A DNA stretch of 64,000 bases, from the NCBI RefSeq assembly GCF_016026235.1, contig NZ_CP065613.1, one strand, 5' to 3'. The position numbers were made by a program. This document shows, one piece after another, positions 6,001-9,000 of the stretch (position 1 is the first letter of the stretch; each line of letters opens with the position of its first letter). This DNA is from Escherichia coli (GTDB taxonomy: Bacteria > Pseudomonadota > Gammaproteobacteria > Enterobacterales > Enterobacteriaceae).

Positions 6001-9000
6001 GGTGCCCATCACCCGCTGATTTTCACCACGCAACGGAATTACCAGCGTCGACCCCAGTTTGCATTGCGGATGCAAAGAGCAACGATAAGGTACTTCGTTG
6101 CCATCAGCGTAGACCACTTCACCGGTTTCAATCGCTTTTAAGGTGTAAGTCGAAGATATCGGTTTGCCGGGTAAATGGTGGTCGTCACCAATTCCGGTAA
6201 AGGCCAGCAATTTCTCTCGATCGGTAATCGCGACTGCACCAATATCCAGCTCCTGATACAGCACCTGTGCCACTTTCATGCTGTTCACTTCGTTAAACCC
6301 CTGGCGCAAAATGCCTTCCGTCGAGGCAGCCACTTTCAGCGCAGTGGCAGAAAAAGCCGAAGTGTATTTTTCAAACATCGCGCGTTTATCGAGCAATATA
6401 CGCATAAACAGCGCCGCGCCGACGGTATTGGTGACCATCATTGGCGCAGCAATATTACTCACCAGACGCACCGCATCTTCATAAGGTCGGGCGATCGCCA
6501 GGATGATCAACATTTGCACCATTTCAGCGACGAACGTGACGGCACCGGCGGTAATGGGGTTAAAGACTTTATCAGTGCGCCCGCGACGGATCAGGATGCT
6601 GTGTACCAGGCCGCCGAGCAATCCTTCAACGATGGTCGAGATCATGCAACTTAGCGCGGTCATGCCCCCCATCGAATATCGATGTAACCCGCCGGTCAGG
6701 CCAACCAGCCCACCGACGACCGGACCGCCGAGTAAGCCGCCCATTACCGCGCCTATCGCACGGGTATTGGCAATAGAATCGTCAATGTGCAACCCAAACC
6801 AGGTGCCCATGATGCAGAAGATGGAAAAGACGATGTAGCAGAGAAATTTATGCGGCAGACGAACCGTGACCTGCATTAACGGTATGAATAATGGCGTTTT
6901 ACTCATTAACCATGCAATGACTAAAAAAACGCACATCTGCTGAAGCAGCAGCAACACCAGATTAAAATCGTACATACCCGCAAACCACACTTCCCTTTAA
7001 AACGCGTAACATACATTGCCTGCGTTTAACTTTCTTTGAACTCTTGCAGAAAAATGAGAATTCGTGAGTACGATCACTCAAAATCGCCTGGCAAAAATAA
7101 AATCACCCTATAAATGCACAAAAAACGGGCAAAACTACCTGGTTCGCAAAACTGCGTCTAAAGTTAAACTGGGACCTCGCGAGCAAGGGTGAGACGATGG
7201 CGCTTTACACAATTGGTGAAGTGGCGTTGCTTTGTGATATTAACCCTGTCACGTTACGCGCGTGACGCAACATTTTTAAAAATCGACGAAGATCGTCCAG
7301 GAGCGCCGTTTTTCAAGGGTTGGATAGATGATTCGTTTACCATGTCGACGAACTTCGACGAATTTCGCCGATAAAAAGTGTCCCATACATGCCCCATTGA
7401 TGCCCCATAAACAATATCAGGAATTGACACTGGTTATCCATACAGATAAAAATAACACCTGTACATAACTACAGTTACAGGAGGGTGTTATGCGTGTTGA
7501 GATCTGTATCGCTAAAGAAAAAATCACTAAAATGCCAAACGGTGCTGTGGATGCGTTAAAGGAAGAATTAACCCGACGCATCAGTAAACGTTATGACGAT
7601 GTAGAGGTGATCGTAAAAGCCACCAGCAACGATGGCCTTTCTGTTACACGCACCGCAGATAAGGATTCTGCAAAAACATTTGTTCAGGAGACTCTGAAAG
7701 ATACCTGGGAGTCTGCTGACGAGTGGTTTGTTCACTAATAAACACGTAAAATCGGTAACGGCTGGAAATCATTCAATACTCGCACTATCGAAAGTTTACC
7801 AGCCAACCGCAGCACGTCCTGCATACGTCGTGTCTGCGGTTTTTCTTTTTCGCTTACATTGTGTCTGGTTCTTCCGGCCACTCAATATCAGGTGCAGTTG
7901 ATGTATCAACACGGTTCAGCAACACCCGATACTTCTTCCAGGCTTCCAGCAACGAGTTTTCTTCCTCCGTTGCGATCTCCAGATCTACAGCATCCTGAAG
8001 TGGCGCAATATGCTCACTGAATTCCTGGATGTAGAACTGTGTGGTGACGGTCTTCCAGCCATTCGGCTCCTGCTGTATCGAAGCATACCAGGCTATTTCA
8101 ATATCGCTATGCTGCGGCAGCATTTAACCCCTTGTAATTCATCGCCATAATTGATTTAATTCACAAATAAAACTATAACATGGTGAAATTAATGAAAAAA
8201 AACACAGATGATGGGGCTAAAATTTACACACCACTTACCCTAAAGCTTTATGACTGGTGGGTTTTGGGAGTATCAAATCGGCTTGCATGGGGATGTCCTA
8301 CAAAGGAACACCTTCTTCCACACTTTCTGGAACATTTAGGTAACAACCATCTGGATATTGGTGTTGGAACTGGGTTTTACCTTACTCACGTACCTGAGAG
8401 TAGTCTGATATCTTTAATGGATTTGAACGAAGCTAGCCTGAACGCGGCATCTACAAGGGCTGGGGAATCAAAAATTAAACATAAAATTAGCCATGATGTT
8501 TTTGAACCTTATCCTGCGGCGTTACATGGTCAATTTGATTCCATTTCCATGTTTTACCTTCTTCACTGCCTGCCTGGAAATATATCTACAAAAAGCTGTG
8601 TAATACGCAATGCGGCGCAGGCCTTAACTGATGATGGAACTCTATACGGAGCCACAATTCTTGGCGATGGAGTTGTGCACAATAGCTTCGGTCAAAAACT
8701 GATGCGCATTTACAATCAGAAAGGCATCTTTTCAAACACAAAAGATTCCGAAGAAGGCTTAACACATATACTCTCAGAGCATTTCGAGAATGTTAAAACC
8801 AAGGTTCAAGGTACTGTAGTAATGTTTTCCGCTTCAGGGAAAAAATAGCATCCAACCGCAGCACGTTCTTGCTTAAGACGTGCTACGGTTTCCTTTACGA
8901 TTTGGGGTTGCGACTTTACCTCTATTGATAATGCATTCCGGCAGAACGTTCAAATATGAACGTACGATATTTAACTAACCGAAAAACAAAATATAGCACA

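Follow-up and report, generated by a model that had tools for sequence, protein, structure and literature searches.

Exchangeable effector loci in the lambdoid prophages of enterohaemorrhagic Escherichia coli (EHEC), with cargo downstream of the tail-fibre genes, are one of the known systems close to the locus described here. In T4-type phages, small conserved regulatory cassettes called PeSL recur around non-essential genes in a hyperplastic region, and the insertions, deletions and replacements found there have been traced to recombination between copies of the cassette (Arbiol et al. 2010, PMC2839356). Independent transcription units added to the genomes of lambdoid phages are known as morons (Juhala et al. 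2000; reviewed in PMC3594210). Here, a 64,000 nucleotide (nt) stretch of E. coli DNA (RefSeq assembly GCF_016026235.1, contig NZ_CP065613.1), called the window and used for all coordinates, was analysed. It contains two copies of one stem-loop, hairpin A and hairpin B, on either side of a remnant of a tail fibre assembly gene (tfa') and a ybcY-type methyltransferase gene. We think it probable that this terminator-type hairpin closes accessory units that face the tail-fibre operon and, as it is shared by many modules, that it is therefore also a site where modules are exchanged. The window would then be a mosaic of three pieces. The first would run from the attachment (att) site in yehV through a dinI-like gene and a leader to hairpin A, the second would comprise tfa', ybcY and hairpin B, and the third would comprise cssrB, a MxiE box, the effector gene ipaHe, and the tail-fibre genes tfa and stf.

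Among described systems, the PeSL repeats come closest to a shared repeat that contains a terminator and mediates the shuffling of modules; in both cases a conserved repeat with a terminator stem-loop borders variable modules. They differ in that PeSL pairs a strong early promoter with the stem-loop and has many copies per lytic phage genome (PMC2839356); unlike in PeSL, no promoter hexamers were found within the shared hairpin sequence. Like a lambdoid moron (PMC3594210), ybcY is an extra gene with a terminator-type hairpin, placed where cargo classically resides, past the tail-fibre genes, and its G+C content is lower than that of its neighbours (0.39-0.41 for ybcY, 0.34-0.40 for cssrB and the 5' part of ipaH, 0.52-0.58 for tfa and stf). 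It is also present or absent at homologous prophage ends: dinI-hairpin-tfa without tfa'-ybcY is found in three loci (L065, L074, L075), and a prophage carrying ipaHd (L004) has a single hairpin and lacks tfa'-ybcY. Unlike a moron terminator, the hairpin is not private to one moron; it is common to dinI, ybcY, cssrB/ipaH and others, and marks their joints. A further difference is that the promoter evidence for ybcY is weak (a match at 8124-8151).

An earlier note on this DNA had reported an exact 15-mer, CCAACCGCAGCACGT on the + strand, at the start of each of two hairpin-like elements, with a C-terminal tfa fragment and a methyltransferase gene between them. All of this was borne out, including the fragment (7854-8123, - strand) and the methyltransferase gene (8180-8848, + strand). 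The repeats and their hairpins are:

7803-7817, + strand: first copy of the 15-mer (copy A), forming the 5' arm of hairpin A
8852-8866, + strand: second copy of the 15-mer (copy B), forming the 5' arm of hairpin B
7805-7841, + strand: hairpin A (folding free energy, dG, -19.0 kcal/mol; z -4.0)
8854-8890, both strands: hairpin B (dG -18.4 kcal/mol and z -4.2 on the + strand, -24.0 kcal/mol and z -5.0 on the - strand)

There is no third site for the 15-mer in the window even with two mismatches allowed; the chance expectation is 0.22, and two copies were reached in none of 100 dinucleotide shuffles. Ungapped likeness extends beyond the 15-mer to 31 nt at 81% identity (7790-7820 versus 8839-8869), and with small indels the alignment of the two copies spans the entire stem-loop; the sequence common to both is the hairpin and 13 nt upstream of it at 9/13 identity. 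A C-A mismatch of hairpin B on the + strand is a U.G pair on the - strand. We conclude that hairpins A and B are paralogous copies of one element of Escherichia/Shigella lambdoid prophages, a GC-rich stem-loop of ~37 nt, and that the 15-mer is its near-invariant 5' arm.

Among 35 distinct variants of the hairpin, 95.1% of stem cells are paired, versus 25-44% when the partners are slid. The pair that closes the stem is A-U in 16, G-C in 8 and G-U in 4-5. Three pairs change on both sides, which is matched by 8 of 500 shuffles, and the covariation score is 0.120 versus 0.099, reached by none of 500 shuffles; the sample consists of related sequences. In the IncF plasmid pEM76 of E. marmotae the stem has undergone two compensatory changes, from CCGCAG/CTGCGG to CCGTGG/CCACGG, and a wobble intermediate is present in another locus (L046). 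These comparisons indicate that the hairpin structure is under selection.

When a 61-nt query around hairpin A was used to search 5426 complete E. coli genomes, 7428 places were found in 4454 of them (1-6 per genome, median 2). In a census of one genome from each of 100,044 species, the family was confined to E. coli, E. albertii and Escherichia sp., apart from two small contigs of metagenome-assembled genomes that carry it with E. coli-type flanks; the remaining matches were unrelated GC-rich sequences. The repeat is thus prophage-specific rather than genome-wide background, as the earlier note had supposed. Every copy with annotated surroundings lies close to the end of a prophage, on one side following ybcY, dinI or the dinI leader and on the other facing the 3' end of tfa or cargo, with 1-3 copies per prophage. 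In VT1-Sakai the hairpin lies past dinI, and in HK97 it is directly past attP and the sib/tI site, facing tfa. In the K-12 prophage Qin it adjoins a truncated ydfJ. At the lambda att site next to bio/ybhB, it is followed by a diguanylate cyclase gene and the tfa'-ybcY cassette. The K-12 prophage DLP12 (tfaX'-ybcY'-hairpin-tfaD') has the same order of tfa remnant (- strand), ybcY (+ strand), hairpin and tfa (- strand); it differs from the window in that its ybcY is frameshifted, its flanks are appY/ompT and nohD, and it has neither dinI nor ipaH. In the O157 prophage at ssrA, the junction of dinI, hairpin A and tfa' is 93% identical to that in the window, and 100% identical over the hairpin segment. 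There the hairpin and tfa' are followed by espM2, an nleG-family gene and espW where the window has ybcY, and the window differs further in carrying a Shigella-type ipaHe with a MxiE-box-like sequence. In the literature searched on EHEC effector loci, we did not find this joint element singled out.

The hairpin in pEM76 (L146, 3001-3456) has a different left flank and is accompanied by cssrB-like sequence and a gene for an IpaH-family NEL effector. The cssrB-like sequence there is interrupted by an insertion of ~320 nt, and the module is flanked by IS66 and IS4 elements.

The sequences joined at the hairpin are diverse. Among the matches listed, 98 instances of the family, drawn from IMG/VR and individual loci and complete with both flanks, fall into at least 7 left and at least 19 right flank classes; many come from near-identical prophages, which lessens the weight of these counts. 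The dinI-leader class is joined to at least 16 right classes, including several unrelated tfa ends, a pin-type recombinase gene, ipaH, an integrase gene and an IS110-type transposase gene. Three partners are seen for the ybcY end, namely a tfa end, cssrB/ipaH and a third cargo, and a single tfa end occurs with three left classes. Cargo beyond the hairpin includes ipaH, espM2/nleG/espW, a diguanylate cyclase gene and a pin-type recombinase gene. On the 3' side, ungapped similarity is lost within 10 nt of the hairpin in 1792 of 2145 unique context pairs (84%); on the 5' side the loss is bimodal, at 0-10 nt and at 50-70 nt, the latter being the left edge of the leader.

The same boundaries are seen in individual alignments to the window. 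Homology to dinI modules stops at 7827/7843, and that to VT1-Sakai, HK97 and the ipaHd prophage stops within 7840-7848, the right edge of hairpin A. In a pairwise block map VT1-Sakai matches 7000-7842; the HK97 match is confined to 7745-7842, and the ipaHd prophage match is interrupted between 7840 and 9860. From 7876/7899 to 8888 the window is matched by phage PhiR26_1 and by the prophage at the lambda att site, and from 7424 to 8888 by E. coli N47. The 3' end of ybcY with hairpin B is present in 4182 of the 5426 E. coli genomes at 96-99% conservation. In 40 records taken at even intervals through the ranked matches, the ybcY match almost always ends at 8888 or 8891, and only 8 genomes of the enteroinvasive E. 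coli (EIEC) type, whose loci are near-identical to that in the window (99.7%), run on past hairpin B into cssrB-ipaHe.

Within the hairpin, the 5' arm (the 15-mer) is invariant, and the loop and 3' arm mostly accompany the right flank. Three chimeras (L065, L074, L075) combine the dinI leader with a ybcY-type loop and a tfa end, with the switch 1-3 nt upstream of the 15-mer, and two others (L063, L115) combine a ybcY end with a dinI-type loop; these crossovers fall within or next to the 5' arm. The earlier note had proposed modular recombination at conserved tail-fibre-end sequences. The breaks in homology at the hairpin edges and the varied cargo beyond them agree with modular recombination; the repeat itself is a terminator-type hairpin and not a tail-fibre sequence. 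The case for recombination is made by mosaic patterns and chimeric hairpins, and is to that extent indirect. From these we infer homologous recombination within the hairpin, of the RecA or phage Rad52 type, as the joining process, as well as the order of events.

The tfa'-ybcY cassette has a history of its own. In N47, PhiR26_1, E. albertii and many IMG/VR prophages, the tfa 3' end GGCCACTCAATATCAGGTGCAGTTGATGTATCAAC is repeated after both hairpins, and the original repeat unit was therefore hairpin plus tfa 3' end, with ybcY between two units. In the same set a tfa stop codon lies 17 nt past hairpin B, and in related phages both hairpin copies are 12-17 nt past a tfa stop codon. Some loci have three such units stacked (class L3, e.g. 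L033, L057, L061; in E. albertii L132, 9662-10744), in the order DUF4376-type tfa remnant, hairpin, tfa', ybcY, hairpin and tfa. These stacked tfa 3' remnants suggest repeated, incomplete replacement of tail-fibre modules. In the window, the conserved tfa 3'-end motif GGCCACTCAATATCAGG has a single site, at 7876-7907, which indicates that other sequence has taken the place of the tfa end once behind copy B. The location by a tail-fibre end that the earlier note described is thus true of both copies in related phages, and in the window copy B is without an adjoining tfa.

As the pEM76 module has the hairpin with a different left flank, both partners in the junction between ybcY and cssrB plausibly had a hairpin. 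The 3' arm of copy B reads CTACGG in the window, CTGCGG in ybcY-type copies and CCACGG in pEM76, and CTACGG would fit a crossover inside the 3' arm. The CTACGG variant was found once in another context (L049), and a simple transition is thus an alternative. We conclude that tfa'-ybcY is an old cassette, near-universal in E. coli, and that the ipaH junction alone is specific to Shigella/EIEC. The shuffling of effectors envisaged in the earlier note accordingly applies to the cssrB-ipaHe junction at hairpin B, found in the 8 genomes; tfa'-ybcY, also present in K-12 DLP12, is not a recent footprint of it.

In this part of the window the order runs from btsS (- strand) and a truncated yehV/mlrA with the prophage attachment site through the LexA box, the dinI-like gene, which is the first gene inside this prophage end, and the leader to hairpin A. 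Past hairpin A are TTTTTCTTTTTC, tfa' (- strand), the ybcY-type gene (+ strand), hairpin B, the MxiE-box-like site and ipaHe (+ strand). The present tfa (DUF4376) and stf of the prophage (- strand) follow ipaHe, and then lom and J. The features of this region are:

7459-7474, + strand: LexA (SOS) box CTGT-N8-ACAG, read from the sequence, 16 nt upstream of the dinI-like start codon
7490-7738, + strand: dinI-like gene, an open reading frame (ORF); 'DinI-like family protein' in RefSeq in the 99.7% identical EIEC locus
7745-7804, + strand: conserved leader of ~60 nt with a sharp left edge, which always precedes the dinI-type hairpin
7854-8123, - strand: tfa', C-terminal tail fibre assembly remnant of 89 codons; an ORF, annotated as a pseudogene in RefSeq relatives
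8124-8151, + strand: sigma-70-like promoter match (9/12) upstream of the methyltransferase gene; such matches are no commoner than in shuffles
8180-8848, + strand: ybcY-type class I S-adenosylmethionine-dependent methyltransferase; an ORF, 'YbcY' in phage annotation, with a homologue in K-12 DLP12
8857-9036, - strand: CssrB small RNA (sRNA; Rfam RF02799), model positions 1-180, 230.2 bits versus a gathering score of 76, E = 2e-52
9029-9045, + strand: MxiE-box-like sequence GTATCGTTTTTTTACAG, read from the sequence, upstream of ipaHe
9164-10807, + strand: ipaHe, type III secretion system E3 ubiquitin ligase effector, on the far side of hairpin B; ORF and annotation
10987-11610, - strand: present tail fibre assembly gene (DUF4376); ORF and annotation
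11561-13015, - strand: present tail fibre gene; ORF and annotation

The position homologous to the LexA box is annotated as 'putative SOS box' in VT1-Sakai. The tfa' ORF is intact, with a Shine-Dalgarno-like AAGGGG 4 nt before its ATG, and might be expressed rather than be a dead fragment. It accompanies ybcY at 91-100% protein identity in the loci examined. Rfam IS009, an old intergenic sRNA candidate, matches tfa' at 7897-8100 (- strand, 129 bits); in the window this match is a tfa coding remnant, and IS009 probably models a pseudogene. The likening of GTATCGTTTTTTTACAG at 9029-9045 to a MxiE box relies on what we take to be the consensus in the Shigella literature. The modelled 5' end of CssrB (9036, - strand) falls inside this site on the other strand, and this suggests that control of the two is divergent or overlapping. 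Rfam matches in the rest of the window include four consecutive transfer RNA genes (35567-35874, - strand), a C4 antisense RNA beside the Hfq-binding RNA isrK, typical of a lambdoid late-control region (40815-41003, - strand), and, towards the other end, a Peptidase-S11 leader RNA (62581-62661, - strand).

The hairpin would be an intrinsic-terminator-type element in the convergent gap between accessory genes, such as the dinI-like gene and the ybcY moron, and an opposing tail fibre assembly gene. Hairpin A begins 66 nt past the dinI stop codon and, for the opposite strand, 12 nt past the tfa' stop codon, and is followed directly on the + strand by the U-tract TTTCTTTTTC (7842-7851). Together they form a predicted canonical intrinsic terminator for the dinI-like transcript, and copy A would close the dinI transcription unit. 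Hairpin B begins 5 nt past the methyltransferase stop codon on the + strand, where it is followed in the window by TTTCCTTTACGATTT, a partial U-tract. Copy B would close the methyltransferase unit and on the opposite strand serve as the 3' hairpin of CssrB.

CssrB was detected in S. flexneri 301 as a northern band of ~180 nt, between SF2021 and SF2022 (Peng et al. 2011, PMC3071730). The window matches it over its full length, with hairpin B on the - strand being the 3' stem-loop of the RF02799 model and hence its terminal hairpin, and copy B is thus already part of a described sRNA, a correction to the earlier note. The two parts of CssrB differ in distribution: its body (8891-9036) is confined to Shigella/EIEC, with linkage to ipaH, and its terminal hairpin is common to thousands of E. 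coli prophages without CssrB. Shigella virulence plasmids share just 8947-9045 with the window (76.7%), upstream of plasmid ipaH genes and without the hairpin. A 45-amino-acid ORF annotated in RefSeq as 'hypothetical protein' or 'nucleocapsid protein' spans hairpin B in many E. coli (e.g. L002, 5369-5506; L145, 3194-3331) and is probably a spurious call over the terminator.

Several observations weigh against a terminator that doubles as a site of exchange. A simple consensus terminator scan of the window listed neither hairpin, because their loops exceed 8 nt or their stems contain a bulge or mismatch, and the structure was therefore judged by folding and covariation. In the covariation analysis the search pattern fixed one arm, so that variation was under-sampled. 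In most E. coli ybcY contexts the hairpin is followed on the + strand by CATAATCC and not by a U-tract, and on the - strand the U-run begins 11 nt past the stem of hairpin B. Outside the Shigella/EIEC context, hairpin B is thus no textbook terminator, whichever strand is read. For CssrB, the 3' end was itself assigned from a terminator prediction (PMC3071730), and termination of dinI and ybcY transcripts at hairpins A and B in vivo is likewise predicted. No product of a hairpin-to-hairpin deletion was seen among the 8 EIEC genomes with the same arrangement. Breakpoints at hairpin edges could also arise by illegitimate recombination followed by selection for intact terminators, in which case the hairpin would be no recombination substrate.

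The absence of that deletion product would equally be expected had the [hairpin + tfa 3' end] unit been duplicated once, when tfa'-ybcY formed, leaving ordinary terminators with no continuing role in exchange. The repeat in N47 and PhiR26_1, which runs past hairpin B into the identical tfa 3' end, fits such an origin, as does the high conservation of the ybcY 3' end with hairpin B across the 4182 genomes, ending at 8888-8891. A single duplication leaves unexplained the hairpins that lack a tfa end and are joined to at least 19 right and at least 7 left flank classes, the existence of chimeric hairpins, and the plasmid ipaH-family module in pEM76 that has the hairpin independently of ybcY, and we consider it unlikely. 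It is similarly improbable that hairpin A and its ~60-nt leader are primarily a regulatory RNA, either an SOS-induced sRNA from the 3' untranslated region (3'-UTR), like DinR of Klebsiella, or a sib-like retroregulator, with the joints as a by-product. In its favour, the left edge of 7745-7841 is sharp and the unit follows at least five unrelated left contexts (the dinI stop codon, HK97 sib/tI, K-12 Qin, the lambda-att prophage and a class beginning CGGTGGGAGG...), a LexA box lies upstream of dinI, and an sRNA from a dinI 3' end has a precedent (PMC10907235). However, hairpin A with its leader matches no Rfam family at E<=1, the leader has a weak 4-bp stem with little covariation and is absent from copy B, and the target-pairing stretch of DinR in the 3'-UTR is described as Klebsiella-specific (PMC10907235). 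A stronger version of our own reading, to which we lend some though limited credence, is that leader and hairpin (7745-7841) are a dedicated, portable RNA joint inside the att/sib end, with the 15-mer as its core, which would terminate accessory transcription and insulate the tail-fibre operon from it, possibly yield an SOS-induced 3'-UTR sRNA and be selected for swapping of cargo and tail fibres, as a temperate counterpart of PeSL in T4.

Direct repeats around a discrete 1-kb unit by tail-fibre genes could also be att-like sites or invertase crossover sites, at which a site-specific recombinase would excise or invert the cassette of tfa' and the methyltransferase gene. Tail-fibre gene regions are known to harbour Pin/Gin/Cin inversion systems, and one right-flank class (R3) has a pin-type serine recombinase gene beside the hairpin. 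We regard this as very unlikely, as no recombinase gene lies within or beside the bracketed unit in the window, the repeats are direct, the orientation of ybcY relative to the hairpin is constant in every instance examined, and the element is an RNA-type hairpin with compensatory changes which, to our knowledge, bears no resemblance to invertase crossover sites. That the repeat is a chance occurrence, or a genome-wide palindrome unrelated to prophages and akin to repetitive extragenic palindromic sequences (REP) or bacterial interspersed mosaic elements (BIME), is scarcely credible. It is a GC-rich extragenic palindrome, as those are, but REP/BIME elements have hundreds of copies across core intergenic regions and this one has 1-6 per E. 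coli genome, is restricted to Escherichia, has its annotated copies all near prophage ends, and was not reproduced as two copies in the 100 shuffles.

Other sRNAs were considered and set aside. Among the Pas sRNAs of enteropathogenic E. coli (EPEC) and EHEC prophages, PasA, PasC and PasD adjoin RusA, TerB, antiterminator Q and the holin/lysozyme operon, and are set apart by that description; the paper on them never mentions dinI or tail fibres. EcOnc27/STnc100 lies downstream of stx2 and is unrelated. DinR of Klebsiella is a conceptual precedent only, and only for hairpin A with its leader.

We therefore return to the hairpin as a terminator-type element at which modules are joined. With many unrelated modules ending in the same hairpin, it would offer a short shared patch for exchange between co-resident or infecting lambdoid phages. 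The locus clearly exemplifies phage mosaicism as already known, does not represent a novel type of element, and leaves the accepted picture unchanged; the leader and hairpin unit is the one part that perhaps deserves experimental follow-up. CssrB has borrowed its 3' hairpin from a prophage terminator that is widespread, which is relevant to annotating and searching for this sRNA, and the hairpin offers a convenient marker of where cargo modules begin and end near the ends of prophages. For the biology of these prophages, the locus is a base-resolved case of the attachment of virulence cargo, in which ipaHe with CssrB, a methyltransferase cassette and an SOS-regulated dinI end are joined at two hairpin copies, and the same joint bears the EHEC effectors espM2, nleG and espW in O157 prophages.

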